A stretch of DNA of 64,000 nt from Shigella phage ESh22, in the sequence record ON528732. One strand, 5' to 3'. Each line of letters starts with the position of its first letter. Position 1 is the first letter of the stretch. Under the pieces are notes generated by a model. The model was not told the origin of the DNA and did no database searches. It was given only the letters and a program-made list of their open reading frames with translations. Below, in pieces: positions 9,134 through 39,460 of the stretch. The position numbers and the translations under genes are program-made.

Positions 9134-9134
9134 T

Positions 9135-16028: not shown

Positions 16029-16032
16029 TACT

Positions 16033-16797: not shown

Positions 16798-16848
16798 CTT
16801 TGAAGTCTCCAGTTTAGGATTGTTGGTAAAGCTCTTTATCTGGGGCTT

Positions 16849-16877: not shown

Positions 16878-16883
16878 GCACTT

Positions 16884-17081
16884 TTAGTAAATCTCATCAA
16901 ATAAATTATTGATTGCAAAAATAGCATTTTCTTTGAATCCTTGGCTATTGCTATCATCACAAAACATAACTTTACCATTGTATGTGATTTTTAATGATAC
17001 CTTTGAACCTTCAACATTCAAAGAATAAGATACACCTTTTAAACACCACAAAGTAGAAAGTTTTTGCATCAATGATAACAT
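16884..17081 (-). CDS. hypothetical early protein
   Basis: 65 aa ORF preceded by conserved leader. Confidence 0.45.
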   Translation of the reverse strand: MLSLMQKLSTLWCLKGVSYSLNVEGSKVSLKITYNGKVMFCDDSNSQGFKENAIFAINNLFDEIY

Positions 17082-17147
17082 TTTAGAATCTCCAGTTTAG
17101 GATTTTATCAGGTTGGGAGGTTTTATTCCCTCCCGTTGATGAGTACT

Positions 17148-17267
17148 TTACTTGTTTTGATTTGCCTTTGCAAGCTTTTTATCAAAGATTTTATCATCTA
17201 TTTCGCTGGCTATTAAGAGTAGGAAAGGGGTCACTACTGAGAATACCATCATATACAAAATAATCAT
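17148..17267 (-). CDS. small hydrophobic peptide (39 aa)
   Basis: ATG directly after conserved leader at 17270-17292; single predicted TM segment. Confidence 0.35.
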   Translation of the reverse strand: MIILYMMVFSVVTPFLLLIASEIDDKIFDKKLAKANQNK

Positions 17268-17452
17268 TTTTGAATCTCCAGTTTAGGAAGTTAACCGACT
17301 GAGAGAACTATAGAGAATCTTTGAAGCAATTGCAAGGCTTATCTATAAAGAATCTTTTAAGTGAATCCTTTTAGATAAACCCCCTCGAACAAATGTACTA
17401 TTGTCAAGGGGTAAAGTCAACAGTTTTTTCAAAGTATTTTGTAAGTTACTGA

Positions 17453-17794
17453 TTAGCTTATAAAGATTTTTTCAGGCTTGACATAGGTCATTTTTTGGTC
17501 TTTGAGTAAATCACTCCAGATTAAAGCGGCAATGTGACCATAGCCGGATTCACGTAATATCTTCATTGTGTTAACTTTTGTTTCAAATCGTGTTGCATAG
17601 TATTCACTGTTTAAGGTTGTTTTATTTCCTTCTTTGTCAGTGTGAACTATACGCATCACATGAAACGGGCTAACATCCTCGCCGCGATTCCATTGCTCAA
17701 AGTATTTTAGGCACTGTAAAGGCGACACTTTATCACTTACTTTTGTAGACCAAGATGAATTTTCTTTATCAGTAATTATGGTTACATGTGCCAT
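17453..17794 (-). CDS. hypothetical early protein
   Basis: 113 aa ORF preceded by conserved leader. Confidence 0.5.
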   Translation of the reverse strand: MAHVTIITDKENSSWSTKVSDKVSPLQCLKYFEQWNRGEDVSPFHVMRIVHTDKEGNKTTLNSEYYATRFETKVNTMKILRESGYGHIAALIWSDLLKDQKMTYVKPEKIFIS

Positions 17795-17841
17795 TTTCAG
17801 ATTCTCCAGTTTAGGAAGTGGGCTTGATAGATACTGTAACT

Positions 17842-17991
17842 TTACTTAATACGGTTTACAATAGATTTTTTCTTTAAATGTAGTTTTTCTGCTTTTTTCA
17901 TGGTTTTTACTAGTAACATCATGATAAATGAGAAAATCATCTCTGAGAATACAGGGTTGTTAAAAACTGTCTCAATAGTATGCGTCATCAT
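17842..17991 (-). CDS. small hydrophobic peptide (about 49 aa)
   Basis: ATG directly after conserved leader at 17991-18012. Confidence 0.3.
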   Translation of the reverse strand: MMTHTIETVFNNPVFSEMIFSFIMMLLVKTMKKAEKLHLKKKSIVNRIK

Positions 17992-18065
17992 TTGAATCTC
18001 CAGTTTAGGAAAGCTCTTTATCTGGGGCTTATAGTAGCAAGGTTTAAAGCCCCATGTAAAGTACT

Positions 18066-18302
18066 TTATTTGTAAATCTCTAAAAATTCATCTTCATTAA
18101 CGTTTTCGTAGTATTCTGTGCTTTCGTCTTCACCTTGTAAGACATAACAGTCCATTATAGACGATTTCGGGTAGTCCTGTCTAGCAATATTGAAAGCCTC
18201 TACTGCATTTTGTTTAGTGCCTTCGAAAGATTCCATAATGCCATAATGACAATTATTTGCACCAGAGCAAACGGCAAGCATGAGATAGATAGTCGTTAAC
18301 AT
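18066..18302 (-). CDS. hypothetical early protein
   Basis: 78 aa ORF. Confidence 0.45.
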   Translation of the reverse strand: MLTTIYLMLAVCSGANNCHYGIMESFEGTKQNAVEAFNIARQDYPKSSIMDCYVLQGEDESTEYYENVNEDEFLEIYK

Positions 18303-18365
18303 GATTTAAACCCCTTGTAAGCCCCTATACAGGGCTTTTGAATGTTGTTAGTGTGATTATATGGT

Positions 18366-18923
18366 TTACGCTAAAACGTCGCTTACAGTGCTTTCTGTGA
18401 TGTTAGATTGTAAGTTGTCGCACAAATCACAAAACACGTTATTCATCTCATCGCTACGTTGAATCATTACAGCAATGTTATGTAATTCATCAGGTACATA
18501 GCCAAGATTTCTATTGTTTAAGTTAGGTACAAAGAACGGCGCATACATAGCATTAAAATCAGTTGTGTAAATCTTTTTAATCCAAGATTTATCAAAGTGT
18601 TCTGTAAAGCTTGCAACGTCGCTCATATTCTCACAACTCCAGTCATCTTGTAATTCATCCTCTGGAATGTCAAGTTCCAAGATAACTATTTTTTGTGATT
18701 TCATCTGGAAAGCTGCTGTAATGCTTGCGCTATCAAGAGCATTTCGGATACCCTCATCAGTGATTTGTTCTGCGTCCATATCTTCTACATCATAGAACTT
18801 GCTAACAGGGTAAACATAAAAACACCCATCACTATCTGAGCAATTCCAAGCCCCTGAAGGTTTTTCTCCACCACTTAGCAGGTTTACAAAGTTTTCTTGA
18901 GTAGTTCCGTGAAAGCATTTCAT
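18366..18923 (-). CDS. hypothetical early protein
   Basis: 185 aa ORF preceded by conserved leader. Confidence 0.5.
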   Translation of the reverse strand: MKCFHGTTQENFVNLLSGGEKPSGAWNCSDSDGCFYVYPVSKFYDVEDMDAEQITDEGIRNALDSASITAAFQMKSQKIVILELDIPEDELQDDWSCENMSDVASFTEHFDKSWIKKIYTTDFNAMYAPFFVPNLNNRNLGYVPDELHNIAVMIQRSDEMNNVFCDLCDNLQSNITESTVSDVLA

Positions 18924-19010
18924 TTTATAATCTCCAGTTTAGGATTATTGGGGCTTGCTTGCCCGTTGATGAGTACTTTAATATATCTAAAAATCAGTGT
19001 CAAACGTTTT

Positions 19011-19412
19011 TTAAAGTTCTGCGTAAATTGTATCGCAGATATCTTGAAAATCTTGCTTTTCTAAATTACGTTGTAACCACGTTGCAAAGAAATCAGCAAT
19101 TGCAAAGTTAGCATCAAACTCAACAGATAGCCACACTTTAACAGCAAATCGAAACATTTTCAAGTCTAATTCTTTATTAAGAACTTTTGACTTTGAAAGC
19201 ATATCAGCCATTTCATATTGTGCGCCGTCAAGTGTAACACCCTGTGCAACATTTGCAAGTGAATCTCTGATGTTTTCTACGTCTAAAATTACGCCTTGAA
19301 CTTTACCGATAATGCTATGTAAAACCTCATCCGGTGCGGTTGACGTGATAGCATTAATGCGGTTAACGGTCAAACGTGCTTTCAGAATAGCGATATCACG
19401 ATTAGTAGTCAT
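19011..19412 (-). CDS. hypothetical early protein
   Basis: 133 aa ORF preceded by conserved leader. Confidence 0.5.
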   Translation of the reverse strand: MTTNRDIAILKARLTVNRINAITSTAPDEVLHSIIGKVQGVILDVENIRDSLANVAQGVTLDGAQYEMADMLSKSKVLNKELDLKMFRFAVKVWLSVEFDANFAIADFFATWLQRNLEKQDFQDICDTIYAEL

Positions 19413-19498
19413 TTTTGAATCTCCAGTTTAGGTTATTGGGTAAATCTCTTTATCTGGGGCTATCTTATCAACCTGATAACCCCATGTAAAGCAATTTA

Positions 19499-19771
19499 TT
19501 AGACTAAATACAACTTTTTACCATTAACAATAATGTAACTTACACCACTATTGCTATAAACATCTTGATAAATTCTGCGTAACTTGCCTAAATAGCGTAC
19601 TTTCCAAGATGTAGGAATTTTCTTTCCATATCCTGTAGCTGTTTTTTGTAAACCTACTATTTGCCAATCTAATAAATGTTGCTCCGCTTTCAAGTCTTCA
19701 AAGTTTAATACACCATCTATATAGTGCTTTAAAGTTACGTTTAAAGTTCTGCCATTATTAGTTGTATACAT
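19499..19771 (-). CDS. hypothetical early protein
   Basis: 90 aa ORF preceded by conserved leader. Confidence 0.5.
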   Translation of the reverse strand: MYTTNNGRTLNVTLKHYIDGVLNFEDLKAEQHLLDWQIVGLQKTATGYGKKIPTSWKVRYLGKLRRIYQDVYSNSGVSYIIVNGKKLYLV

Positions 19772-19857
19772 TTTCAGATTCTCCAGTTTAGGATTGTTGG
19801 GGCTTCTATCTTGCCCCGTTGATGAGTACTTTACTTGTTTTGATTTGCCTTTGCAAG

Positions 19858-20184
19858 CTATTTTTTGCGTTTATTAATTTCTTGTGTAATAACCGGATAA
19901 TATTCTTTTAAATCAGTAGCTTGAATAGCATTTAGCAACGCATTGTAATCATTAACAAGCTCAAAGTTACCGGATAAAACATCACTGATTTGATAAGTGT
20001 CTGCCTTAAACCTGAAGCCCATCTCTAAACGCTGTAATTGTTCCACGCTTAAACGCTCTAGGAAGCTGCTTACAAGGTTTATTTTAACTTTCCTTGTGAT
20101 AGCCTTATCTGCATAATCTGAGGCTTGATAGGCTTTATACAGCGCCACAATTGAAATCAGAATTGCAATACCAGAAAGTAACAT
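19858..20184 (-). CDS. hypothetical membrane protein
   Basis: Track ORF 19858..20241; start moved to ATG at 20184 with GGGAAGG RBS; N-terminal TM segment. Confidence 0.4.
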   Translation of the reverse strand: MLLSGIAILISIVALYKAYQASDYADKAITRKVKINLVSSFLERLSVEQLQRLEMGFRFKADTYQISDVLSGNFELVNDYNALLNAIQATDLKEYYPVITQEINKRKK

Positions 20185-20185
20185 T

Positions 20186-20476
20186 TTAAACCTTCCCAAC
20201 GTGTGATAATCTACCAGTGTGACTAATTTCATATGAATCAATCATATCAGCTTTTGATTTTACTGCTGATTTGCTAGTATTATCATAAATGTCAACCTGA
20301 AGCAATGGCTTGCCATGTTCTTTTTGAAAGTTCCAAATACAGATTAAAACTTCTTTCTTGTTAATCTTCCCATGATACCACTCTATAACACCCTGTGAAC
20401 GTCTATGAGATTCTACAAAAGAAATGTTTTGTAGTAATTGGCTTAACTTTGAGCGTACATTAGCAGGAATTTTCAT
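20186..20476 (-). CDS. hypothetical early protein
   Basis: 96 aa ORF preceded by conserved leader. Confidence 0.5.
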   Translation of the reverse strand: MKIPANVRSKLSQLLQNISFVESHRRSQGVIEWYHGKINKKEVLICIWNFQKEHGKPLLQVDIYDNTSKSAVKSKADMIDSYEISHTGRLSHVGKV

Positions 20477-20560
20477 TTTAGATACTCCAGTTTAGGATTG
20501 TTGGTAAAGCTCTTTATCTGGGGCTATCTTATCAGCCTGATAACCCCATGTAAAGTACTT

Positions 20561-21073
20561 TTAGATATTAAAGATATTCATCACACTATCTTTTAAATCT
20601 TCCAAGCGCTCTAAAACTTCCTCTTCAGCACCTGAATTACTCACTTCCTCTTTTAAGCGTGAATCTAAATCTTCCCCGTCAAGATAGCACCAATCGAAAC
20701 CATACGCAAGAGAAAAACTATTTAGAACCGTGTTCCCTTCTGAGTCAATCACTGAGGCGTATAGAATGTAGCTATTTGCCCCTAAATCCCTTTCTAGTTC
20801 ATCTTGTAAGCTCTTGTAAGCGGCTAATGATGGGTTATCCCTTCCCTGTTTTGCGTAATCACTGGCAAGCTGTGAAAGCGCATAGTGCATAGGAATTGCA
20901 TATTTGTAGCCGTTACGTTCTGAGTTTTTAACTTTGATTGTAACTCCTCCTTTATGCTCATCAGTGAATTGCCAGTTATCCACACAATGGGAAGGCTCAT
21001 AAACATTCATTGCTTCAAAGATGATAGTAAATTTTTCTTTTTGAACTTCAAAGGTGCTTTCGACTGATTTCAT
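20561..21073 (-). CDS. hypothetical early protein, acidic C-terminus
   Basis: 170 aa ORF preceded by conserved leader. Confidence 0.5.
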   Translation of the reverse strand: MKSVESTFEVQKEKFTIIFEAMNVYEPSHCVDNWQFTDEHKGGVTIKVKNSERNGYKYAIPMHYALSQLASDYAKQGRDNPSLAAYKSLQDELERDLGANSYILYASVIDSEGNTVLNSFSLAYGFDWCYLDGEDLDSRLKEEVSNSGAEEEVLERLEDLKDSVMNIFNI

Positions 21074-21159
21074 TTTTTGAATTTCCAGTTTAGGATTGTT
21101 GGTAAAGCTCTTTATCTGGGGCTTATACTATCGACTTATAAACCCCATGTAAAGTACTT

Positions 21160-21417
21160 TTAGATTAAATTGCCAATTAATGCTAAGTGCATTTTGTAAC
21201 CCTGTTTTGTAAACACGTTAGTGTTACCGATAGTTTTTACACCTTTAAACATATTGCAAGAGCTATGTTTGAGAGTTAATTTTTTGTCTGTCTTTACGCC
21301 CCATCTTACAGCAGAATCTTTTCCGTTGTCAACCACTTTACCATTTAATTTTTTAGCAGTTGCACGAGCATCATCACGGGATTTTGCAGTAATTACGATG
21401 TTTTTAATGGTAGCCAT
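21160..21417 (-). CDS. hypothetical early protein
   Basis: 85 aa ORF preceded by conserved leader. Confidence 0.5.
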   Translation of the reverse strand: MATIKNIVITAKSRDDARATAKKLNGKVVDNGKDSAVRWGVKTDKKLTLKHSSCNMFKGVKTIGNTNVFTKQGYKMHLALIGNLI

Positions 21418-21504
21418 TTTTAGAATCTCCAGTTTAGGTTAGTGATAAAATTCTTTATCTGGGGCTTATACTAGCAACTCATAAACCCCATGTAAAGCAC
21501 TTTA

Positions 21505-21888
21505 TTAGTTAATTTTGAAATCTGTTACATACCCATCACTACCAATCATTTGAGATACGCCAGCTTTTTCGACATTGTAACCCATATTAGCAAGATGATA
21601 GATTGCATCCTCATAACCATAAGTGCCACCCTGATAGCGGCGTTTATCACAACGGATTAACGTTTTACCACGTGCAGCCAGTGCATTGATGATGGCTTTT
21701 TCTCCTGAGAGTGTATCATCTAACATTGTAACGGTGTAGTGGTTTATCTTGTTACCGTTTACATCATACTTAAAATTGTATGCGTGTACAACAATTATTT
21801 TGCCTTTGAATTGCTCATTCATGGAATTTTCCAGAGCATCGCGAAAGTTTTCTTTCTTGATAAACTTTGGCATATAGTATTTTTTCAT
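21505..21888 (-). CDS. hypothetical early protein
   Basis: 127 aa ORF preceded by conserved leader. Confidence 0.5.
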   Translation of the reverse strand: MKKYYMPKFIKKENFRDALENSMNEQFKGKIIVVHAYNFKYDVNGNKINHYTVTMLDDTLSGEKAIINALAARGKTLIRCDKRRYQGGTYGYEDAIYHLANMGYNVEKAGVSQMIGSDGYVTDFKIN

Positions 21889-21976
21889 TTTAGATTCTCC
21901 AGTTTAGGATTGTTTAGTGATAAAGTTCTTTATCTGGGGCTTAAGATACTACCTTTTAAACCCCATGTGAAGCACT

Positions 21977-22138
21977 TTATGCAATAATTTTTATAAAATC
22001 TTTCATGGTTATTTTGTCGCCATTTGTTAGGGCTATGCAGTCATTACCCATCACTGACTTGTAAAGATAGAAAACTTTTCCCGTTTTAGGGTAGCCGTCT
22101 AAATCCTTGTAACGTATTACATTGCTTTCTTTAATCAT
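21977..22138 (-). CDS. small hypothetical protein (53 aa)
   Basis: ORF below track size cut-off; weak RBS. Confidence 0.25.
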   Translation of the reverse strand: MIKESNVIRYKDLDGYPKTGKVFYLYKSVMGNDCIALTNGDKITMKDFIKIIA

Positions 22139-22150
22139 TGTCAAGCCCTT

Positions 22151-22357
22151 TTAAACGTCATAGTAGTAAACTGCTGTATGTCTTGTAAACTGTCTTGTGT
22201 GATTTGTCAAATAACAATCCGACCTGATTGATGTATCAACATACTTGTCATAATCCTTTTCGGATATTCTCTGCCATACATCACAAATAAGCATAAAGAA
22301 ACGGCGCTTTTTAGTCTTGTTATTGTCTACAATCATCAATTGGCGTTGATATAACAT
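22151..22357 (-). CDS. hypothetical early protein
   Basis: 68 aa ORF preceded by conserved leader at 22360-22382. Confidence 0.45.
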   Translation of the reverse strand: MLYQRQLMIVDNNKTKKRRFFMLICDVWQRISEKDYDKYVDTSIRSDCYLTNHTRQFTRHTAVYYYDV

Positions 22358-22544
22358 TTTAGAATCTCCAGTTTAGGATTGTTGGGATTGCTTCCCGTTG
22401 ATGCAAATACTATAAGACTGGTTTTTTAGAGTCAAGCAAATTTTTAAAAATATTTTTGGCATGTTGTGAATGAAACGGGCGCGTACACATAGCACTAAAC
22501 AGAAAACTAGTCAAGAATTATTTTTTAATCCGCTACAAATTTTT

Positions 22545-24567: not shown

Positions 24568-24833
24568 TCCCTCGTTTTTAACGTTGCGTAGATTTCTTTG
24601 GAATCTTCACCGAACCAGATATAGTGATTCTCTTTGATTTCAGGATGGTTGTCAACACGAATCTTACATTCTCTTCCAACATGTTTTAACTGTGCCGTGA
24701 TTCCCTGTATGAATAGGTGACACATGATATCATCCATGATTGTTGGTAAGAAGTCAATTCTCATGTAAGTGTTGCTTGGTCTTGGGAGTAGTAGATAACC
24801 TTCTACATAGAACGTTTCATTCTTCTCTGTCAT
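24564..24833 (-). CDS. hypothetical protein
   Basis: 89 aa ORF. Confidence 0.45.
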   Translation of the reverse strand: MTEKNETFYVEGYLLLPRPSNTYMRIDFLPTIMDDIMCHLFIQGITAQLKHVGRECKIRVDNHPEIKENHYIWFGEDSKEIYATLKTRE

Positions 24834-25099
24834 TGCTGCTTATTCCCTAACAAAATCATATCAATCAAATTGTTTGCCTTGATAGCACATTCATAGAATC
24901 CATCACGATAAAACTCCATAGCACTAGCAAGGTCTTCACCCTTAGTACCTTTGACAGTGTACCTAGTTTCTTCCTGAGTGTACTTGTCACTCTCACTTAC
25001 TTGGGAGTTTTTGAAGGTACTGTTCACCTTGTTCATTGAACACCCTGACATAAGACTCAGTAGCACAAATATTAAGAAACTCTGTCTTAGTTTTTTCAT
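24830..25099 (-). CDS. o-spanin-like outer-membrane lipoprotein
   Basis: 89 aa; signal peptide with lipobox LMSGC; start lies inside the i-spanin-like gene in another frame. Confidence 0.5.
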   Translation of the reverse strand: MKKLRQSFLIFVLLSLMSGCSMNKVNSTFKNSQVSESDKYTQEETRYTVKGTKGEDLASAMEFYRDGFYECAIKANNLIDMILLGNKQQ

Positions 25100-25340
25100 A
25101 AGTTAATACCTCTTTTGTGTGTTTGTTTTTAGCAAGCACATCTTTCAAATCGTTTTTGTAATTAGCGCTAAGGTTTGCTAAACCTTCTTGGTAAGCATCC
25201 TTAGCAACACTAACCAATCTCTGATTAGTCAACTCTTTCTCGTTAACTTGGCTGGTCTTGTAAGTATAACCTCCCCAAGCACCAACACCTAACAGAAACA
25301 TGATTACAAAAGCAGCTTGACAAAATTCTTTAAATGTCAT
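24993..25340 (-). CDS. i-spanin-like inner-membrane protein
   Basis: 115 aa; N-terminal TM segment then charged helical periplasmic part; overlaps lipoprotein gene. Confidence 0.5.
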   Translation of the reverse strand: MTFKEFCQAAFVIMFLLGVGAWGGYTYKTSQVNEKELTNQRLVSVAKDAYQEGLANLSANYKNDLKDVLAKNKHTKEVLTYEKTKTEFLNICATESYVRVFNEQGEQYLQKLPSK

Positions 25341-25868: not shown

Positions 25869-26564
25869 TCAGTTTTTAACTAACATTGTTTTAATGTGTG
25901 GAAGGATTCTTTCGACCTTTGCCACGTTCTTTACTGTATCTTCTATAAAGCATACTACATCATAGTAAGGTAGAATGCAAGACTGAAGCATACGAACTTT
26001 CAAACTTTCTGCACTAATCTCATTGTCACCGAATCCACGCATAAATAGTAGGAAGTCACTGTCTGTGTTCTCATTCAGGAAGAGATGTGTAACCACTCTT
26101 TGTGATTCACCACGAGCAGTTAAGAATCCTATATCAGCATTCTGTGAGATTCCACATAGGATGTTAAAAACATAAGTTGGTTTAGCCCTGTGAGAGTCTA
26201 CCAAGTTTGTGTACTGTGAGTAAGTACCATCATCTAACAAGGTTGCATTAAGACTTTTGTCAAAGCTTGTAAGAACTCCGTCAATATCTGCCAGAACCAT
26301 TTTACGTTTTGCTTCTAAGTCTTTTGCAACTAAGATGAGGCTGTTACGATTTACATACACAGTCTTACCAGTTAGCAAATCTTGACAAGGAATCTTTGTC
26401 ATCGTTGAGTGAAAATCTTCAAAACGACACACAACATATCTTGCTGTATCTGCAAAGTCAGCTTTAACAGTTTCTGACCAGCTTGCAGAACTGATATCTA
26501 AATCCAAAGGTTTGATATCATAAGCATGACACAGCACCTTATCAAATTGTTTTGATTCGCTCAT
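25869..26564 (-). CDS. HAD-superfamily hydrolase-like protein (candidate nucleotide phosphatase)
   Basis: 231 aa; DxDGxLT motif (VLADIDGVLT) after an N-terminal extension of about 85 aa. Confidence 0.4.
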   Translation of the reverse strand: MSESKQFDKVLCHAYDIKPLDLDISSASWSETVKADFADTARYVVCRFEDFHSTMTKIPCQDLLTGKTVYVNRNSLILVAKDLEAKRKMVLADIDGVLTSFDKSLNATLLDDGTYSQYTNLVDSHRAKPTYVFNILCGISQNADIGFLTARGESQRVVTHLFLNENTDSDFLLFMRGFGDNEISAESLKVRMLQSCILPYYDVVCFIEDTVKNVAKVERILPHIKTMLVKN

Positions 26565-27090
26565 ATTTTACCTTTTTAATGTTTGTTGCAAACTCACATT
26601 GAGCAAGCAGTTGCATGTTATTGTACACGTCTTGAGAGTATTGTCTAGCCTTTGGAATCTTATATTTGTAACCAGCATTATAAGATGCTAAGACACGCTT
26701 CATAGAATACTTTCCATTTGGGTGACCATGTACATTTGTCCAGAAAAGAAGTTCCTTGTGAGCCTCTTTAGCTGAGTAATGGAAATCACTGATAAGCTTT
26801 CTCTTTGCAACGTTAGGTGAAATCTTGTTACGCTTTACAACAGTCTTCAAATGATTCTGGAACACTCCATAATCGTGAGTCTTTTTATTAACAACCTTGA
26901 CACCTAATTGTGACTCTTGTAAGGCTATAGCTGCTAATGGGATTCCCCAACCTTGTCCCATCTCTTTCTCGCCATAATTGTAAGCCTTTAACATGTTAAC
27001 TTTCTGGCTAATTGTTAGTTCTGGACAATCTGACGCTGTAGCAACCTGTGCTGTTAATAATAAGCACAAACCTAAAATGAATTTCTTCAT
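26542..27090 (-). CDS. secreted lytic transglycosylase (SLT domain)
   Basis: Track ORF 26542..27114; start moved to ATG at 27090 with AGGAGA RBS; signal peptide; ALQESQ catalytic motif, YNAGY. Confidence 0.6.
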   Translation of the reverse strand: MKKFILGLCLLLTAQVATASDCPELTISQKVNMLKAYNYGEKEMGQGWGIPLAAIALQESQLGVKVVNKKTHDYGVFQNHLKTVVKRNKISPNVAKRKLISDFHYSAKEAHKELLFWTNVHGHPNGKYSMKRVLASYNAGYKYKIPKARQYSQDVYNNMQLLAQCEFATNIKKVKYERIKTI

Positions 27091-27151
27091 TGGGTCTCCT
27101 ATTTTGTTAAACATGCAGACAATTATACACCATCCTGCACATTTTTCAAAT

Positions 27152-27176
27152 AAAAAAGGCTGCCGAAGCAGCCCTT
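27152..27176 (-). terminator. rho-independent terminator after rIIB-like gene
   Basis: Minus-strand hairpin GGGCTGCTTCGGCAGCC followed by TTTTTTATTT. Confidence 0.6.
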
Positions 27177-27191
27177 TAGGATTCTTACTAA

Positions 27192-28301
27192 TTAAACTTC
27201 ACGTTTACGCTGAGAAATCAGTTCACCAGCAGTACCTACAACTACGTGTAGTGCTTCTGAACCATCCCACTCTTTAACAACTTCACGACGGCCATTCACG
27301 ATTGCTGCTACTTCATAACGGGAAGCTCGCATTTTCATATCTTGGTAATCAGTTGGTACTGATACAACATCTCGTGGGTGTACACGAACTTTCAGGATGG
27401 TATCTCCAGAGAAGCTTGTTACATAATCCCAAGCACCAACATGAAGACCCTGAGAGCAAGTTACGTTACGGTTATTATCAACCATCCAACGTGGCATCTC
27501 TACAATGTTACCCAAATCATTAGGAACCTTGCAAGTACGAGAGTCAAACAGTTTACCACCACGGCTAGTTACTTTCTTCCAACCAATAATGTAACCTTCT
27601 TCGTCAATCTCAACGTCAAGATGTGATACGAATCCCCAAAGTTGTTCTACAGAATCTTTGGATGGGTTCTCCATCAGCTTCTCGAAGAACGCTAATAGAT
27701 GGGTAAATCCTTCATCACCATTCTTCATCATGGTCAGGATACGGTCTACCAGAGTTGAACGCATCTGAACAGCACCGTAGTACAGGTTATCACCCTTGAT
27801 AGTGATAGCACCCTGAGTGAAGTTCTCAATAGACTTACGGATATTCATAAGGTCAAATGCTTTCTTGTACTCACCTGAAACGACTGCTACTTTGATTTCT
27901 GCAAAGTTTGGATGAGTTGATTCAACAATCTCAGACTCTGCACCGAAAGTCATGATAACAGAATCACCAGTAATCATGTACTCAATCTTGCTGTTACTTT
28001 GCATTGCATCATGTAGAGCATTTACTGGTTCGGCTTTGACTTCTTCTTTCTTAACAGCTTTTACAACAGTAGTCTTGGAAGTTGCTTTCTTAGAAGTCTT
28101 AGCAGCTTTTGCAATAGACTTCAGAGTTTTGGCTAGTTTAGCTGGAGCCTTATCCAGAGTTGCTTGGTGACGTTCTACAGCACGACCAACAGAACGAGTT
28201 GAAGTTTTGTAACGATTTGCAATGGCAGTCTTGGTCAGTTTACCTTCCATTACCAGTGCATAGATTTCTGCGTCGATTTGTGCTTTAGTTTTAGTAGTCA
28301 T
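27192..28301 (-). CDS. rIIB: rIIB-like protein
   Basis: 369 aa; lies immediately downstream of the rIIA-like gene in the T4-type order; no motif-level support of its own. Confidence 0.45.
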   Translation of the reverse strand: MTTKTKAQIDAEIYALVMEGKLTKTAIANRYKTSTRSVGRAVERHQATLDKAPAKLAKTLKSIAKAAKTSKKATSKTTVVKAVKKEEVKAEPVNALHDAMQSNSKIEYMITGDSVIMTFGAESEIVESTHPNFAEIKVAVVSGEYKKAFDLMNIRKSIENFTQGAITIKGDNLYYGAVQMRSTLVDRILTMMKNGDEGFTHLLAFFEKLMENPSKDSVEQLWGFVSHLDVEIDEEGYIIGWKKVTSRGGKLFDSRTCKVPNDLGNIVEMPRWMVDNNRNVTCSQGLHVGAWDYVTSFSGDTILKVRVHPRDVVSVPTDYQDMKMRASRYEVAAIVNGRREVVKEWDGSEALHVVVGTAGELISQRKREV

Positions 28302-28336
28302 CTTAATATCTCTCTTTAGTTAATTAACAGTTTCGT

Positions 28337-28365
28337 ATTCTAAGGGGCTTTTCAGCCCCTGTCAA
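28337..28365 (-). promoter_or_regulatory. sigma70-like promoter TTGACA-N17-TAGAAT with GGGGCTGAAAAGCCCC palindrome in the spacer
   Basis: Minus strand TTGACA, AGGGGCTGAAAAGCCCCT, TAGAAT about 30 nt upstream of rIIB-like start. Confidence 0.5.
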
Positions 28366-28371
28366 ACTCTT

Positions 28372-30741
28372 TTAAGACCAAGAATTAGTATCTTCTGGGA
28401 TGTGCTTAACATCAAACCCTAAGAACTTACCAACCTCAACAGGTGATACTTTATTCCAGTCTAAGTTAGAAAGCAAGAAGTTTTCTGTGCGACGATGCTC
28501 AAAATACTTCTCAATTTTCCTTTTAAGACGGCTCTTAGCTTTGTCAAGAGACTGTCTCATCTTAGTCTTAGGCCGCATTGCTTTACGTAAGGACTCCAGA
28601 ACACTGCTAGTACCCTCATAAGCAATAGTCCCAGCAGAGTAAGCCAAACGTCCAAACATTGCTTCTACAGCGTCTTCGTTACCTTCTAAGAACATCGTAA
28701 ATTTGATATCCTTGGAGTAAACATAACCTTTAGACTTCTTCTTATTATTAAACGTAAATTCACGAGAAATAATATGTTTATCAGTCAGGTCACACTTATT
28801 TGCAGCCCACTGGTAAATCATGTGACGATGGTAATCTACCCAATGAGAACTGTCAACATAATCTTTGAAGACTTGTTCAGTTACTTCAATCCAGTCTTCC
28901 GGTACTTTCTTCCAGTTTGCTTTACGGAAGACATACACAGACTGCCCAGTTAACTCTGTCACGAGTTTAGCAGCAGTCTCTGGAGAACATGAGAACAAGC
29001 CACCAATTACTTCATCACTTTGTGCTTTGATGTAAAGTTGTGGTTCTTCAATCTCATCAAAGTTCTCTTTAACTTCTGAGTAACCTACTTGGTCATCATT
29101 GAAGACAAAAGCTTTGTAGAGTTTAACAACTCCACGAGTAATTGTACGTTTCTCGTAATGGTGCTCTTTAGATGACATATTGTGAACACTTAGCAGACTC
29201 TTATCAAGCATGTGTAGCGTTACAAACGCATCAAATTGTTCCTGACTGTTAAACAGGAATGCAATACCATTGTAGCGACGGAAGTTTGACTCTTCTTGTT
29301 CACGGTCACGGCAAGCACCACGAATAATCTGATTCTTACCAGTTGTCTTTTCAGTACCATTCTTGTTTCGACGGTCATTGATAAGGAACAGGTAATTGCT
29401 CAACTTATCTTTACTCATTGCACCGAAGATACTAAACATTGCAGAGTCTTGTGTATGCGTGGCTGAAGTTGCACGAATACGATTCTCAAGACTGCTGTAT
29501 TTGTAGTATGCAACAGGTTCATACAAGTTACCGATATTAGGAACCTGATTACCATCTTTGTCAAGACGGAAGTTACCATTCTCATCTTTTAAGAAGGATG
29601 GTGAACCATCAGTCTCAGCCAATTGACCACGGCGAATACCCAAAAGTTTACGTTCAAGGTCTGCTAAGTTCTGACCTTGCCACTCTAACTTATCATTAAC
29701 GTGATAGAATATTTCACGAGCATTCTTCCTCATATCATCATAAGCTTGTGCAGCGTCAATCAACGTGGGTTTGTCTGCAACCTCTTTAATAACATCCTCA
29801 ACAATAGTTGAAGTAATCTTTTTAACTGCTTCAACAATTTTGTTTTTGGTAGTGTCGTTCATCTGCAATGCTTCACGAGATGCAGCAATAGCCACTGAAC
29901 CAATCGGCATGTAGATGTTTACAAGGTCTACAGAACTACGGAAGAACTGAGGCAGAACCGTTGTAAATTCTGAACCAAGTAATTCACCCATTTCAACAGG
30001 GTATGCAATATTCCCCATTACAACGTTGAAGTGAACACTGTTATTGTTTGAGCGCCAACCCTCTTTGTATTTCATTGCATCATAAACACCATCTTCACGA
30101 GAGATTGAAGTCATTGCTGCAAGAATATCGAAGAACTCAATGTTGCAATCTGGTTTAACTTTAAAGTATGAGAATACATTACTTGCTTCTTCTTGGAACT
30201 TAGAAATGCGACTCTCAGAGACTGCTACTCGAACTGCTAAACCATTTGGTTCAGTTGTTGGGTTAGTAGTCAGTTTAGTAACTTGAGGAATACCATTCTC
30301 AAGATATACAGAGTACTTGTTAACAACACCATCAACGTAGCTTGATACAGTGAATGATTGAGCAATTGCAAACGGTGACTTTGAACCGATACCCATAGCA
30401 CCGATGTAGTCATTTGAGTCATTCTTTGTTGACTCTCCGTAGGTCATGTAAAGTTTCATTACTTTATCATGGGTCAATCCAGTACCAAAGTCTCGAACTT
30501 CAAAGTACGGCTCAAAACGAGTTGGTAAGTGAACCAAGAAAGGTTTATCACTATTACCTGAATCAATGTGAGCATCTACTGCGTTACAGGATAACTCACG
30601 AATTACAGCACGTTCTTTGTAGGTGTATACACCAGAACTCAGAAGACTAAACATTTCAGGTGTCATCTTAATCTGAGCTTGAGAAGTTTCTAAAGTGTCT
30701 GAACTTTTGATAATCTCTGCGTGGTCATTTACCATACGCAT
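28372..30741 (-). CDS. rIIA: rIIA-like protein with N-terminal GHKL ATPase domain
   Basis: 789 aa; GHKL N-box RELSCNAVDAH, G1 RDFGTGL, G2 IGAMGIGSKSPF, recalled as matching T4 rIIA N-terminus. Confidence 0.65.
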   Translation of the reverse strand: MRMVNDHAEIIKSSDTLETSQAQIKMTPEMFSLLSSGVYTYKERAVIRELSCNAVDAHIDSGNSDKPFLVHLPTRFEPYFEVRDFGTGLTHDKVMKLYMTYGESTKNDSNDYIGAMGIGSKSPFAIAQSFTVSSYVDGVVNKYSVYLENGIPQVTKLTTNPTTEPNGLAVRVAVSESRISKFQEEASNVFSYFKVKPDCNIEFFDILAAMTSISREDGVYDAMKYKEGWRSNNNSVHFNVVMGNIAYPVEMGELLGSEFTTVLPQFFRSSVDLVNIYMPIGSVAIAASREALQMNDTTKNKIVEAVKKITSTIVEDVIKEVADKPTLIDAAQAYDDMRKNAREIFYHVNDKLEWQGQNLADLERKLLGIRRGQLAETDGSPSFLKDENGNFRLDKDGNQVPNIGNLYEPVAYYKYSSLENRIRATSATHTQDSAMFSIFGAMSKDKLSNYLFLINDRRNKNGTEKTTGKNQIIRGACRDREQEESNFRRYNGIAFLFNSQEQFDAFVTLHMLDKSLLSVHNMSSKEHHYEKRTITRGVVKLYKAFVFNDDQVGYSEVKENFDEIEEPQLYIKAQSDEVIGGLFSCSPETAAKLVTELTGQSVYVFRKANWKKVPEDWIEVTEQVFKDYVDSSHWVDYHRHMIYQWAANKCDLTDKHIISREFTFNNKKKSKGYVYSKDIKFTMFLEGNEDAVEAMFGRLAYSAGTIAYEGTSSVLESLRKAMRPKTKMRQSLDKAKSRLKRKIEKYFEHRRTENFLLSNLDWNKVSPVEVGKFLGFDVKHIPEDTNSWS

Positions 30742-30804
30742 AACAGGATTCCTCTTTGTTGTTTGGTGAGGTAACTATATTCTTTTATAGATACCTCTGT
30801 CAAG

Positions 30805-30984
30805 TTACTTTTTAAATTTCTTTCCAGTTCCGTTACAGTAAGGGCAACAATGCCCAATACCAGCTATTCCAGAACCTTCACACTCATTACATGGTTCAGT
30901 CTCTGCAAAGTACTTGCAAAGCAATACTGCAATAGCAACAATACAACCAAGTGATAAGATAATCTCTAACCAATAACCTTGCAT
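30805..30984 (-). CDS. small membrane protein with DnaJ-like Cys-rich zinc-finger motif
   Basis: 59 aa ORF below track cut-off; TM segment then CNECEGSG...CCPYCNGTG. Confidence 0.35.
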   Translation of the reverse strand: MQGYWLEIILSLGCIVAIAVLLCKYFAETEPCNECEGSGIAGIGHCCPYCNGTGKKFKK

Positions 30985-31354: not shown

Positions 31355-33181
31355 TTAGAGTTGTTTGTCAATGTTATTTCGAACATCACGAAGGTTTACA
31401 TAACCATATGGTTGAGAGTTGCTAAACACCAACTTCAAAGCACATTCTGGATTATCCAGTACACCTTCAAACTCTGCAAAGCCAAAGCCGTCTACAGCTT
31501 CCAGTTTATCACCGTCACACATAGGAACTACACCACCAAAAGCAGACTTCTTAAGACCACTGTCAGTTTTAGGGTCTTTTGCCAGCATGATTTCTTCACC
31601 GTCCATCTGAGCAAGAGTAGCCTTGACAGCAAATGCAAAGGTATCACGAGTCAGGTACTGGTAAGTGTATGAACCAACACCAAAGACCACGTTAGAGCTT
31701 GCAAAACCTTTGTCAGCAAGACGACCAAGAATCTCATTAGCTCGCTCAAGGGTGATAGAATCACCATAGATTAAACCGATGTGCTCATCCAGTACTTTGT
31801 AACCTTTACTGTTCACACGACCACCAAAGATGTTGTAGAGAGTTGGGATAGCCCCATCAATCTCTGCTGTCAGCATACGCTTAACAACAATATTTCCGGT
31901 CTTATTAAAATCTTTCAAGTTAACTGTTTCAGCAGTTTCAAAATCTTCTTTATCAACAACTAACTCATAACCTTCAGAGATAAGCCATGCAGCAAACCCA
32001 TAACCCATATCCTGCAACTCACAATACTGAATAAGATTCAGGAGTTTATCATTGTTCGGTGCAATTTCTTTCATATGTTTGTAGAACATACTCTTGGCAT
32101 TTTCCCACTCAACAGCACGATAACCAGCAACAATGTGAATGGGGTCTCCAGAGTCTGGACGTATTACCAGTTTACCTTCACGCTTCAGGATAACTTCACG
32201 GAGTTCTGGGAGAATCTCTGTAACAGTACGCCAGAAGTTGTAAGTATCTGAAACAACACTTGCAATACCAGTTGGATATACGTCTACCAGTAAATGCTCA
32301 AAGGTTTTAACCTCACCACGCCAACGTTTTGCATCCAGCAAGCTATCAGACTGCATGATGTACTGTGAATGAATATCTTCCTCTGACAAGTCTTTCATAT
32401 TCCATGAAATGTTTGCGCACATCACAGAGTGTTCAGTAGCTGGTACAGAGTTGCCGATATCACTTACTTCCATAAACTGACCATAAGCACGTTTAGCAGT
32501 GTAGACAGCAGGGAAGCTGTCAGTACCTTTAAAGCTTGTCAGGTGACCTACAGCGTTAAAAGCATCATCTGTAAAGCCTGACATACCACGCATTGCAAAA
32601 TCATGACACTGCCAAGGTAAATGGAAGTCATTATCACAGGTTACATCAGCCCATTGCTTACAGATGCGTTTGTAGTGTAATGCAATAGTGGCAATCGTAG
32701 AAGCTTTCCAAATTTCAGCAGAGAAAGCATCTTCCAGATATCCAGCTACCCAATGGAAGCCCTCTACAGTATTCTTGAAGATAATCATTGGAACACGCAT
32801 TGGAACCACTGTACCCTCTTCTACAGAGTAGACTTCGACTGGCAGATAGCCTAAATCGTGAAGTTCTTCCCAATGCTCACGACCAATCGCATCTGCACCG
32901 AGAACACCGTTCATGATTTCTAAGATTTCGTCAACAACTTCTTTCTTATCTCGTTCAAAGAAGGTAGCATTCCAGTGGTCTACTAAGTAATCTTTAACGA
33001 AACGTTGAATACCAAAAGCAACTACACCGTCAATATCAAGTGGAGTGTTAAACCACTTATCACCACGAGGTGTAAGATTTAGCATCAGATACTGTGTAGC
33101 ACTTGGGTACTGGTAGATATGGCCAGCTTTGTAAGCATCCGCATTAAGACCTGCTGGTACTGCATAAACTGATTTAGACAT
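31355..33181 (-). CDS. NAMPT-family phosphoribosyltransferase homologue; candidate Namat of a NARP1-type NAD+ reconstitution pathway, or canonical NadV
   Basis: Track ORF starts at TTG 33223; ATG at 33181 preferred. Aligns by eye to NAMPT blocks: DAYKAGHIYQYP, HDFAMRGMS...SFKGTDS, SVPATEHS, SVVSDTYN, IRPDSGDP, YGDS. Confidence 0.7.
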   Translation of the reverse strand: MSKSVYAVPAGLNADAYKAGHIYQYPSATQYLMLNLTPRGDKWFNTPLDIDGVVAFGIQRFVKDYLVDHWNATFFERDKKEVVDEILEIMNGVLGADAIGREHWEELHDLGYLPVEVYSVEEGTVVPMRVPMIIFKNTVEGFHWVAGYLEDAFSAEIWKASTIATIALHYKRICKQWADVTCDNDFHLPWQCHDFAMRGMSGFTDDAFNAVGHLTSFKGTDSFPAVYTAKRAYGQFMEVSDIGNSVPATEHSVMCANISWNMKDLSEEDIHSQYIMQSDSLLDAKRWRGEVKTFEHLLVDVYPTGIASVVSDTYNFWRTVTEILPELREVILKREGKLVIRPDSGDPIHIVAGYRAVEWENAKSMFYKHMKEIAPNNDKLLNLIQYCELQDMGYGFAAWLISEGYELVVDKEDFETAETVNLKDFNKTGNIVVKRMLTAEIDGAIPTLYNIFGGRVNSKGYKVLDEHIGLIYGDSITLERANEILGRLADKGFASSNVVFGVGSYTYQYLTRDTFAFAVKATLAQMDGEEIMLAKDPKTDSGLKKSAFGGVVPMCDGDKLEAVDGFGFAEFEGVLDNPECALKLVFSNSQPYGYVNLRDVRNNIDKQL

Positions 33182-33229
33182 AATTTTATCTCTCTCAATA
33201 GTGGGGCTTTTCAGCCCCTTCAAAGTTTA

Positions 33230-34111
33230 TTACTCAATGTTTGCTACAGTTACTTGTGAGAACTGATTCAGACCACGGTCTTCAGCATCCCCTAGCGAGT
33301 TTGTAGTGTAGATATGGTCAATGCCATTGTCAAGAAGATTTTCAACACCTTTTGAGAAAATCCCATGAGTTACATAAAGTTCTACACGGCTTGCACCAGC
33401 TTCACGAAGATGTTTTGCAGCTTCTACAAAGGTACGACCACCATCACAGATATCATCGAGAATCATGACAGCTTTACCAGTTAAGTCTACATCATCAAGG
33501 ATTCGCATACCAGTGATTTCACCAGTTTTCAGATTACGAATCTTAGCCATTGTGATATATGGCTTATCAACCTCTTTAGCAGCCTCTTCAGTCTTCTTGG
33601 CTGCACCTGCATCTGGAGCCACTAAGAAATCAATACGTGGGTCACTTGCAAAGTGTACTGCTGCTTCTTTCTGGGGCAGGTTATGGAAGCACTTAAACAA
33701 GTTCTCTGCTACGTTGCTGTGAGTATCTAAAGCACATACTGCATCAAACTCCATAGCATTTACCAGATTTGCAAAGACTTTCAATGCTGCTGCATCACCT
33801 TTAAACATGTGACGGTCATAACGAGCATTTGGTAAGAAGCCAAATACAGCAGTCTTCATAGTTGATTTCTGAGGAATTAGTTTGTCAATAGCTTCTTTCG
33901 CCAGAGCTAAAGCAAACAGAGTATCTTTGTCGTAACCCTGTACAGTGAGGATTACATTCTCAATCTGGGAAGCATTCTGTTCAGCATAGGCTACTAGGTC
34001 TTCTGAGAAGTTACCACCAATTTCTCCAGACGGAAACTGGATAATGTTGAACTCTTCTTGGTGAGCACCTTTTTTACGTGAGTGTAACAGTACACTAATA
34101 ATAGTTTTCAT
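33230..34111 (-). CDS. ribose-phosphate pyrophosphokinase (Prs) homologue; candidate Adps of a NARP1-type pathway
   Basis: 293 aa; PRPP-binding-type motif ILDDICDGGRT and VAPDAGAAKK; directly upstream of the NAMPT-like gene on the same strand. Confidence 0.65.
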   Translation of the reverse strand: MKTIISVLLHSRKKGAHQEEFNIIQFPSGEIGGNFSEDLVAYAEQNASQIENVILTVQGYDKDTLFALALAKEAIDKLIPQKSTMKTAVFGFLPNARYDRHMFKGDAAALKVFANLVNAMEFDAVCALDTHSNVAENLFKCFHNLPQKEAAVHFASDPRIDFLVAPDAGAAKKTEEAAKEVDKPYITMAKIRNLKTGEITGMRILDDVDLTGKAVMILDDICDGGRTFVEAAKHLREAGASRVELYVTHGIFSKGVENLLDNGIDHIYTTNSLGDAEDRGLNQFSQVTVANIE

Positions 34112-37315: not shown

Positions 37316-39460
37316 TTACATAGATTTTCTGTCTTTAATCTCTGCAATTTTTGCATCGTTCATTCTTGAGGTTCCCTTGATTTTAGTCCAACCAAGATAC
37401 CCACAAACACGGTTAATAACAGAGATATCATGTGAGTGACACTTAGGACATTCTTCAACATCTGCACTTGGACGGTGACCACAATTTTCACAGATTGCTA
37501 AGTCAAAGTTAACACCTTGATAGAAGCCCTTACCCATACCCCTTGTAACACATGCTTCAATAGCTTTATGATTCTCTGGGTTAGCAATACGAACATATTG
37601 AATATGCCCTCCATTGCAGGAATGGAAGAAAGGTTCTTCTAAGTCTTGCTTCTCAAATGGTGTAATATCTGCTGCTACGTTCATGTGGAAGCTGTTTGTA
37701 AAGTACTCTTTATCGGAGACACCTTTAATAACTCCAAACATGTGACGAAACTGCTTCAATTGCGTACCACAAAGGCTCTCAGCAGGTGTACCATAAAGGG
37801 CATATAAGAATCCATCTTCTTGCTTAAACTGCTCCAGCTTGGTGTTTAGGTGCTCCATAACTTGATGTGCAATACCTTCTGAAGATGACTCATGAAGTCT
37901 ACCTTCTCCAGCCAAAACAGAAAGCTCATCTAGTGCGGTAACACCAAAAGAAGCTGTGAAGGATTTCACAGTATCCCAACCAATCTTGTCAGTTGGTTTC
38001 TTATGACCTTTGTACAGTCCACCTTGAGTAAACGCCAGAGGGTTAGAACTTGCTGGCATGTTAGCAATCATTTCATAACGCTTCTGGTGGAATGCTCGAA
38101 TCATTTCAAGGTACTTGTCAATCTCTTCAAAGAAATCAAGTTGATTCTCCTTAGCATACTGATAAATCATTGGCAAGTTCAGTGAGACAGCACCAATGTT
38201 AGCACGTCCTACATAGAACTCTCCACCATCTTCATCAAGGTATGGTGACAGATAAGCCCTGCAACCCATCGGTGAAATCACTTTACCCGAGCGTTTAAAA
38301 GCATCTGCTGCAGCACCATGACCAGATACACTCAGGAAGTCTGGGTACATTGCTTTAGAGCAACACTCAATAGCTTTTCCATAAAGTTGACCTTGCCAGA
38401 TATCCAGAGAGTGTCTTTTCTCATCATAGATATATACCAGTTTAGGGAATACTACTGGTTTCTTGGCTTTACCTTGACCATTCATACGAACATCCAAGAT
38501 AGTCTTAGCAATCATATATTGTAGACGGTTATCATGATTTGATATATCTGGTTCAAGTAATCCAAATGTTAAAGTTGTAAAAGCAAAGTCACCACGACTG
38601 CAAGGGACAGTGTTAAGTTTCATCTCAAGGGATTGAAAGCCCTGAGTTAACTCAATTTGTAACTGGTTCTTGACATAGTGGTAAATCTTGTCTTGAGGGA
38701 TTCCATAAGCAATAGCCATTTCCTCATGATACTTCTGAGACTTCTTAGCATATGGTACTAAAATCTTATCAATCTCTGGGATAGTGAATCCACCAAATTG
38801 CTGTGCAGTTGCTGATAGAACAACGTCACCGATAACCTGTAAAGCTGACAGAACAGACTTTGGTTCACAGTATTCAATACCAGACATTTCAAAGCCACCT
38901 TCCAAGACTTTGCCAATATCAAATAAGCAACAGTTGATTCCACCAAATACCAAGTCTCTTAGGTCGTGAATGTAGATAAATCCATCTTCAATAGCTCTTA
39001 TTTCTTCTGGTGTTAAGTGATACTGTTTAAAGATTTCTTTTGTCAGGTATCCACGAATAATAGAACCCTTTGTAGAGATTAAGCTACTGTCAAAGTTAGC
39101 ATTCTCACGGTCACCTAAGAAGAGAGTGTCTTTAGTCTTCTGATACAGATAATCCCAATTCTGTGCCACCTCTTTACGGTAGTTACGATACGTTGAGTAT
39201 GACTCATAAATCTCATGGTTAGTGACAGCCAGAGCACCTTCTACAATACTGTGAATGTCATCTACAGAGATTAGTAAAGCATTCTGATTAGATGCCTTTG
39301 CAAGAATCCTCTTGAAAGCTGCTTCTAAAGCATGGATAACTTCTAGTGGAAGTTCTTTGTAGCCAACACGATTAGCTGATTTCTCAACGGCTGTCAAGAT
39401 TTTGTTAATATCTGGTTTTTCCAGTGAGCCGTTCTTTTTGATAATTTGTACTTTAACCAT
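37316..39460 (-). CDS. nrdD: anaerobic ribonucleoside-triphosphate reductase
   Basis: 714 aa; N-terminal ATP-cone, C-terminal Cys cluster and glycyl-radical motif RVCGYLG. Confidence 0.85.
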   Translation of the reverse strand: MVKVQIIKKNGSLEKPDINKILTAVEKSANRVGYKELPLEVIHALEAAFKRILAKASNQNALLISVDDIHSIVEGALAVTNHEIYESYSTYRNYRKEVAQNWDYLYQKTKDTLFLGDRENANFDSSLISTKGSIIRGYLTKEIFKQYHLTPEEIRAIEDGFIYIHDLRDLVFGGINCCLFDIGKVLEGGFEMSGIEYCEPKSVLSALQVIGDVVLSATAQQFGGFTIPEIDKILVPYAKKSQKYHEEMAIAYGIPQDKIYHYVKNQLQIELTQGFQSLEMKLNTVPCSRGDFAFTTLTFGLLEPDISNHDNRLQYMIAKTILDVRMNGQGKAKKPVVFPKLVYIYDEKRHSLDIWQGQLYGKAIECCSKAMYPDFLSVSGHGAAADAFKRSGKVISPMGCRAYLSPYLDEDGGEFYVGRANIGAVSLNLPMIYQYAKENQLDFFEEIDKYLEMIRAFHQKRYEMIANMPASSNPLAFTQGGLYKGHKKPTDKIGWDTVKSFTASFGVTALDELSVLAGEGRLHESSSEGIAHQVMEHLNTKLEQFKQEDGFLYALYGTPAESLCGTQLKQFRHMFGVIKGVSDKEYFTNSFHMNVAADITPFEKQDLEEPFFHSCNGGHIQYVRIANPENHKAIEACVTRGMGKGFYQGVNFDLAICENCGHRPSADVEECPKCHSHDISVINRVCGYLGWTKIKGTSRMNDAKIAEIKDRKSM

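Follow-up and report, generated by a model that had tools for sequence, protein, structure and literature searches.

A T4-type rIIA–rIIB pair with a probable anti-exclusion role in a Felix-O1-like Shigella phage

What are the two adjacent genes that resemble the rII locus of phage T4 in Shigella phage ESh22, and what would they do in a genome whose replication genes are not of the T4 type? The DNA analysed here is a stretch of 64,000 nucleotides (record ON528732), referred to below as the window. The initial annotation had proposed that a 789-aa protein matches T4 rIIA, that the 369-aa gene following it reproduces the T4 rIIA–rIIB order, and that the pair adds to the counter-defence content of the window. 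Both genes are open reading frames with an ATG start, rIIA (28372..30741, minus strand) lying upstream of rIIB (27192..28301, minus strand) as in T4, with a spacer of 70 bp between them. The proposed order is thus confirmed, and the strand can now be added to it.

The identity of both proteins was addressed by PHROG profile searches. For the 789-aa protein, the top family is phrog_612 'RIIA' (E=8.9e-181), with protein residues 1-767 matching profile positions 1-712 of 725, and T4 rIIA itself carries this label. BLASTP against T4 rIIA gives 26% identity over residues 24-664 (~640 residues, E=9e-42). The top family of the 369-aa protein is phrog_609 'RIIB' (E=3.9e-86), which is also the label of T4 rIIB; its residues 11-331 align with residues 13-303 of the 312 of T4 rIIB at 37% identity (E=1e-57), and its homologues carry PF26926. 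Both proteins are thus assigned by sequence similarity as full-length orthologues of their T4 counterparts, in agreement with what had been proposed. Their dN/dS values (0.12-0.14 for rIIA, 0.09-0.16 for rIIB) indicate purifying selection on each gene.

The window DNA is 99.9% identical to that of Shigella phage ESh21 (Ounavirinae, Mooglevirus), a record which already labels the two genes 'rIIA lysis inhibitor' and 'putative rII lysis inhibitor'. The pair is found at a coverage of at least 80% in 242 phage records, nearly all of them annotated rIIA/rIIB. More broadly, rIIA relatives occur in 2925 phage records and rIIB relatives in 2906, with the same host spread. The pair had been correctly recognised, but it is already known and ordinary, a long-known landmark of Felix-O1-like phages that was in the literature by 2015 and is annotated in hundreds of genomes of this group. 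The replication genes expected from the initial annotation are also present in the window, namely a family-A polymerase (53104-55803, plus strand) and a Toprim+DnaB_C fusion corresponding to a primase-helicase (48635-50665, minus strand). An ATP-dependent ligase is encoded as well (57071-58171, plus strand). Finding an rII pair beside such a non-T4 replication module is no surprise, this being the standard, long-annotated Felix-O1-like layout.

In T4 (Tevenvirinae), rIIA and rIIB form the classic locus needed to grow on λ RexAB lysogens. The window pair shares with it the PHROG families 612 and 609, the gene order and orientation and the GHKL motifs of rIIA, and the helix-turn-helix and C-terminal core of rIIB can be aligned. 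The differences are a sequence identity of only 26% for rIIA and 37% for rIIB, a rIIA that is 64 aa longer and a rIIB that is 57 aa longer than in T4, the extra length of rIIB coming mainly from its expanded Lys/Ala-rich linker. The genomic setting also differs: the ~86-kb genome of the window phage is of the Felix-O1 type and combines a family-A polymerase with a primase-helicase fusion, in contrast with the T4-type replication genes. Membrane association has been reported for both T4 rII proteins. In the window, neither rIIA nor rIIB contains a hydrophobic segment of transmembrane grade (maximum KD19 of 1.29 and 0.77, respectively), and any action on the membrane would therefore be peripheral or indirect.

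Functional insights come from closer relatives. Escherichia phage phiSUSP1 (Ounavirinae, Suspvirus) differs from the window phage in genus and host, and its rIIA and rIIB are 82% and 87% identical to the window proteins, within an identical local synteny (NAMPT, small ORFs, rIIA, rIIB, hypothetical, PNK). When either phiSUSP1 gene is knocked down by CRISPRi-ART, the phage plates less well on cells carrying λ RexAB; in a set of five phages to which phiSUSP1 belongs, infection is unimpaired by rIIA/rIIB knockdown without Rex, and a defect is observed only with RexAB (PMC11879866), as is likewise the case for T4 rII insertions. The pair of Bas63 (Escherichia phage JohannRWettstein, Felixounavirus) is more divergent from that of the window than the phiSUSP1 pair, g84 being 65% identical to rIIA and g85 72% identical to rIIB, and the order of the genes is unchanged all the way from Prs/NAMPT to the spanins. 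Deletion of g84 or g85 reduces plating on QatABCD cells 10^4-10^5-fold, according to a preprint that puts forward a speculative mechanism (bioRxiv 10.1101/2024.10.10.617714). The homology to T4 of >80% given in this preprint conflicts with the T4 identity of 26-37% measured for close relatives of Bas63.

The counter-defence reading is thus supported by orthologues acting against two different systems, and a T4-type rII pair with an anti-exclusion role is very probably the best explanation of the locus as a whole. A plausible scenario is that rIIA and rIIB would be made early from putative host-type promoters and would act together, with rIIB the partner of a rIIA that would serve as an ATP-driven clamp or remodeller. 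The two could thereby keep abortive-infection systems from bringing down the membrane potential and the energy supply until replication of the phage is complete. Such a function may have a cost, as suggested by phage T6, the RIIB of which triggers a Lysobacter gasdermin system (PMC10312443): rIIB could be sensed by other defences, for example a CARD-gasdermin system. As for the Shigella host of the window phage, it may be devoid of any Rex or Qat system.

A different role was considered, in which the pair would mainly set lysis timing, delaying holin-mediated lysis rather than countering defences. The 'RIIA/RIIB lysis inhibitor' labels found in PHROG and GenBank point in this direction, but this wording is historical for rII genes. 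In T4, the rapid-lysis phenotype of rII mutants varies with the host, whereas true lysis inhibition requires rI and the holin. The local context is also suggestive, since genes for a spanin pair and for a secreted SLT-like protein are found 0.1-2 kb downstream of the rII pair, and a lysis-regulating role has been proposed in one genome paper (PMC7925395). This role nevertheless looks very unlikely in view of the normal infection seen in five phages after rIIA/rIIB knockdown when Rex is not there (PMC11879866), which T4 insertions reproduce.

Somewhat more doubtful still is a reading where rIIB would be a transcription factor tuning phage expression to host physiology and rIIA a general Hsp90-type chaperone, evasion of defences being only a by-product.

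The GHKL (Bergerat-fold) ATPase domain of rIIA covers residues 45-163 (30253..30609, minus strand), as detected by Pfam HATPase_c_3 with 26.2 bits, barely over the cut-off of 25. The three motifs listed in the initial annotation are all found, RELSCNAVDAH at residue 48, RDFGTGL at 83 and IGAMGIGSKSPF at 113, and the N-box (ExxxNxxD), G1 (DxGxG) and G2 (GxxGxG) motifs are intact. Across 73 homologues, no variation is seen at residues E49, N53, D56, D84, G86, G114, G117, G119 and K121. The features of an Hsp90-type site can be recognised in rIIA, with its catalytic Glu, Mg-binding Asn, adenine-binding Asp and Gly-rich lid. By its motifs and structural model, rIIA has an intact Hsp90-like GHKL ATP-binding site; for this as for any rIIA, we infer ATP hydrolysis from the conserved residues.

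The predicted structure of rIIA (mean pLDDT 86.2) was compared with the PDB using Foldseek, and the best 50 matches all belong to the Hsp90 family (lowest E=6.8e-16). Hsp90 proteins (TRAP1, HtpG) are thus the closest solved fold, with a common Bergerat ATP-binding fold, and the alignments span 550-740 columns, extending past the ATPase N-domain, which is an argument for a chaperone. At the sequence level, Hsp90 was reached only with a profile of rIIA homologues, in which TRAP1 emerged at E=6.6e-5 with RELISNGSDA opposite RELSCNAvD; searching PDB sequences with the single sequence of either rIIA or rIIB gave nothing useful. However, the TM-scores are only 0.26-0.30 and the sequence identity 9-16%, and rIIA reaches 44.3 bits with the NCBIfam HSP90 model, the cut-off of which is 455, over residues 30-134 only. 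Membership in the Hsp90 family was thus rejected, because rIIA falls far short of it and matches T4 rIIA over its full length. To our knowledge, no chaperone function has been described for rIIA.

The predicted structure of rIIB (mean pLDDT 85.8) suggests a three-part architecture, in which a disordered Lys/Ala-rich linker joins an N-terminal helix-turn-helix (HTH) domain to a conserved α/β body. The HTH domain (residues 6-50; 28152..28286, minus strand) is confidently predicted and of the σ-region-4/LuxR/DeoR type, which is an argument for a transcription factor. It is followed by the linker (residues 54-92; 28026..28142, minus strand), predicted to be disordered with a pLDDT <50. The segment of residues 46-100 contains 13 Lys and 12 Ala in 55 positions, and most of the gap in the BLASTP alignment with T4 rIIB falls within this Lys/Ala segment. 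The most conserved core spans residues ~200-335 (27297..27704, minus strand), with a pLDDT >90, and contains all the invariant residues, G236, K242, R271, C282, G285, H287, P309 and V313, near-invariant columns being also confined to it. No significant relative of this core was found among solved structures, and the profile of rIIB homologues yields nothing below E=0.14 against PDB sequences. This architecture, with a body of α/β type that has no solved relative, is the only new detail brought by the present analysis.

A classification of rIIB as a specific transcription factor has been published by Iyer et al. (PMC7824862). The conservation of rIIB is, however, concentrated in the C-terminal body and not in the HTH. 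Neither a general chaperone nor a factor tuning phage expression fits easily with the loss of either gene having no phenotype when no defence system is present (PMC11879866).

The last alternative places the 789-aa protein in a different GHKL family (MutL, histidine kinase or a MORC/TmtA-type defence ATPase), its position next to the 369-aa gene being a coincidence. It draws on the generic nature of the single Pfam match and on a weak PADLOC match to TmtA (E=1.4e-7). It is effectively refuted by the full-length phrog_612 and T4 rIIA matches, together with a pairing with rIIB that stays constant in thousands of phages, which leaves it a negligible probability. The TmtA match links rIIA residues 20-134 to positions 19-127 of a profile of 1302, limited to the common GHKL ATP-binding core, and a defence-system identity was rejected on this ground. 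No MutL transducer or C-terminal, HisKA or S5-fold domain was detected in rIIA with Pfam and NCBIfam at E-values up to 1; with Hsp90 proteins as the best 50 structural matches, MutL and histidine kinase were discarded as well.

Felix-O1-like phages serve in the biocontrol of Salmonella, Shigella and E. coli. In such phages, the rII pair predicts tolerance of abortive infection of the Rex or Qat type, and may also predict sensitivity to RIIB-sensing systems. The confident models of the two proteins could guide mutagenesis, on the Hsp90-like rIIA as well as on the orphan-fold body of rIIB with its invariant Lys, Arg, Cys and His. This value belongs to the whole family, with nothing special to the window.

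Another observation concerns the profile of PHROG 609, which has 1055 positions and is matched by rIIA at 31-312 and by rIIB at 756-1046. No rIIA–rIIB fusion was found among the top homologues of either protein, and the layout of the profile hints at natural fusions of the two.

Possible expression signals can be read around the pair. A Shine-Dalgarno sequence, AAAGAGGAA, lies ahead of rIIA. Putative σ70-like promoters, each a consensus match at 11 of 12 positions, precede rIIA (TTGACA-18-TATAGT; 30774..30803, minus strand) and occupy the rIIA–rIIB spacer (TTGACA-17-TAGAAT; 28337..28365, minus strand), the scan of the region giving 19 promoter calls where 11.9 are expected by chance. A GGGGCT-GAAA-AGCCCC hairpin sits inside the spacer of the second one. 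Downstream of the pair, 15 bp past the rIIB stop, a hairpin with a 10-bp stem followed by a T run (27154..27177, minus strand) resembles an intrinsic terminator.

Both ORFs reported in the initial annotation exist, on the minus strand: rIIA (789 aa) runs from its ATG start at 30741 down to 28372, and rIIB (369 aa) from its ATG start at 28301 down to 27192. A spacer of 70 bp separates them and each is preceded by a purine-rich Shine-Dalgarno sequence. Profile searches confirm the proposed T4-type pair, whose identity as rIIA/rIIB is near certain. rIIA matches PHROG 612 'RIIA' over residues 1-767 (E=8.9e-181) and rIIB matches PHROG 609 'RIIB' (E=3.9e-86), the families that also label rIIA and rIIB in a T4 record. 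By BLASTP, identity to the T4 proteins is 26% for rIIA (residues 24-664, E=9e-42) and 37% for rIIB (residues 11-331, E=1e-57), the latter alignment covering T4 rIIB (312 aa) from residue 13 to residue 303. Pfam returns for rIIA the generic HATPase_c_3 alone (residues 45-163, 26.2 bits versus a cut-off of 25). For rIIB, the dedicated family PF26926, which is carried by its homologues in a large protein collection, is not listed in the local Pfam scan.

Around the pair, a region of 6 kb matches Shigella phage ESh21 (ON528731.1, Ounavirinae, Mooglevirus) at 99.9% identity, the four bases that differ across the pair being all in rIIB. The ESh21 record labels the genes 'rIIA lysis inhibitor' and 'putative rII lysis inhibitor'. 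DNA identity falls to about 82-84% in the next relatives, namely the Sf13/Sf17 Shigella phages, Citrobacter phages and phiSUSP1. In 242 phage records the pair query is covered to 80% or more, and nearly all of these are annotated as rIIA/rIIB, many starting at rIIA. Relatives of rIIA occur in 2925 phage records and those of rIIB in 2906, with the same host distribution. The dN/dS values of both genes, measured against phiSUSP1 and the Felixounavirus Bas63 (JohannRWettstein), are 0.09-0.16. The finding is correct and its interpretation supported; since the pair is already known and annotated, its interest is low.

The three GHKL motifs quoted for rIIA are found at residues 48, 83 and 113. Across 73 aligned homologues, the invariant residues of this Bergerat fold include E49, N53 and D56 in the N-box, D84 and G86 in G1, and G114, G117, G119 and K121 in the G2/lid region. 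A second invariant cluster comprises G243, Y247, G281, R289 and E290. By analogy with the Arg/Lys of GHKL transducer domains, R289, in the second domain, could touch the γ-phosphate. The AlphaFold2 model of rIIA is confident (mean pLDDT 86.2) except over the first 15 residues and the presumed ATP lid (102-115). All 50 top Foldseek matches in the PDB belong to the Hsp90 family (TRAP1, HtpG, Hsp90, GRP94), the best with E=6.8e-16, over 550-740 aligned columns and with TM-scores of only 0.26-0.30. The rIIA-family sequence profile likewise retrieves TRAP1 (E=6.6e-5), RELSCNAvD being aligned with RELISNGSDA, and the NCBIfam Hsp90 model gives 44 bits, far under its 455-bit cut-off. Because of these results, the GHKL domain is Hsp90-like, neither MutL- nor kinase-like, the alternatives named in the initial annotation, and rIIA itself is no Hsp90, an assignment rejected on the bit score and the TM-scores. 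Membership of a different GHKL family is excluded by the domain and profile searches together with the T4 rIIA BLASTP match.

In the rIIB model (mean pLDDT 85.8), a predicted three-helix N-terminal domain (6-50) of helix-turn-helix type is joined through a disordered segment (54-92) to a well-ordered α/β body. Of the 55 residues at 46-100, spanning the disordered segment, 13 are Lys and 12 Ala. The invariant residues all lie in the body (G236, K242, R271, C282, G285, H287, P309 and V313), for which structure and profile searches revealed no significant relative among solved structures. Neither rIIA nor rIIB has a hydrophobic stretch of transmembrane grade.

The counter-defence reading of the pair is supported by tests on orthologues. 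Bas63 g84 and g85 are 65% and 72% identical to rIIA and rIIB, with the same gene order from Prs/NAMPT to the spanins. When either gene was deleted, Bas63 plated 10^4-10^5-fold less efficiently on QatABCD cells, a defect that complementation repaired for the most part (bioRxiv 10.1101/2024.10.10.617714). The phiSUSP1 proteins, from a Suspvirus of the Ounavirinae, are 82% and 87% identical, with shared local synteny, and knockdown of either one reduces plating on λ RexAB hosts (PMC11879866). RexA is a DNA-binding protein, partner of the membrane protein RexB (PMC11077077). Loss of rIIB lets T6 escape a Lysobacter CARD-gasdermin system, which is activated by RIIB expression alone (PMC10312443). 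By analogy, a counter-defence function is likely in ESh22. The pair would form an early-expressed module keeping Rex- and Qat-kind abortive-infection systems from shutting the cell down; we infer that rIIA acts as an ATP-driven, Hsp90-like clamp, with rIIB as its partner. A transcription factor role for rIIB with rIIA as a chaperone (PMC7824862) agrees with both folds, but does not fit the conditional phenotype. The lysis inhibitor of the database label, a historical one, is contradicted by the lack of phenotype on Rex-free hosts (PMC11879866).

As for expression of this putative counter-defence module, consensus matches point to σ70 promoter-like sites just upstream of rIIA (30803-30774, minus strand) and inside the spacer (28365-28337, minus strand), each with 11/12 consensus positions, and to a GC-rich hairpin (10 bp) that carries a T run and follows the rIIB stop (27177-27154, minus strand). 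In the 28337-28365 site, the 17-nt spacer consists of a GC-rich hairpin (GGGGCT-GAAA-AGCCCC), which no T run follows. An attenuator at the rIIA/rIIB junction is one possible role for it, an element for RNA processing or stability another.

The replication context had been described correctly: the window holds a family-A polymerase (53104-55803, plus strand) and a Toprim/DnaB_C fusion (48635-50665, minus strand), as well as an ATP-dependent ligase (57071-58171, plus strand). An rII pair beside such genes is the normal Felix-O1-type layout, and is thus expected for the subfamily. Just upstream of the pair, on the minus strand, 31355-33223 encodes a nicotinamide phosphoribosyltransferase (phrog_448, E=1.3e-195) and 33230-34111 a protein of the ribose-phosphate pyrophosphokinase family (phrog_619, E=7e-98). 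Bas63 g80 and g79, which occupy the same positions, are co-essential counters of Sir2-HerA according to PhageMaP (bioRxiv 10.1101/2024.10.10.617714), and by analogy 31355-34111 is likely an NAD+-reconstitution counter-defence module. Directly upstream of rIIA, a 59-aa ORF (30805-30984, minus strand, phrog_3931) combines one strongly hydrophobic N-terminal segment (KD19 2.55) with two CxxCxGxG motifs (CNECEGSG and CPYCNGTG), resembling in sequence a DnaJ-type zinc finger on a membrane anchor; the Bas63 gene at this position is annotated 'putative membrane protein'.

On the other side of the pair, a 190-aa protein with a signal-like hydrophobic N-terminus (26542-27114, minus strand, phrog_600) matches the SLT lytic transglycosylases below threshold (20.8 bits versus a cut-off of 21.3, E=2.9e-4); in the ESh21 record the start of this gene is placed 7 codons further downstream. 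A spanin pair occupies 24830-25340 (minus strand), with an Rz-like i-spanin (24993-25340, phrog_1152, E=4.8e-36) and an overlapping ORF with a lipoprotein-like signal (LMSGC; 24830-25099). Bas63 has an annotated o-spanin at the matching position.

The window nrdD (37316-39460) is a single uninterrupted ORF of 714 aa, whereas Bas63 nrdD (anaerobic ribonucleotide reductase, record positions 6631-9517) is a joined CDS split by a homing-endonuclease insertion, with bas63_0068 inside. By coordinate arithmetic, the linear ESh21 record would begin near window position 48027. The window would thus extend about 16 kb beyond that start, and the source assembly would on this basis be permuted relative to ON528731.1. 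With up to 3 mismatches allowed, and 0 copies expected by chance, the 26-bp 'start-associated' repeat CCAACAATCCTAAACTGGAGAATCTA of Citrobacter phage Mordin was found eight times at 15961-22385 (minus strand), among small hypothetical genes. A cluster of 18 tRNA genes (21-3307, minus strand), including two each of tRNA-Met, tRNA-Leu and tRNA-Lys, is of a kind typical of Felix-O1-like phages.
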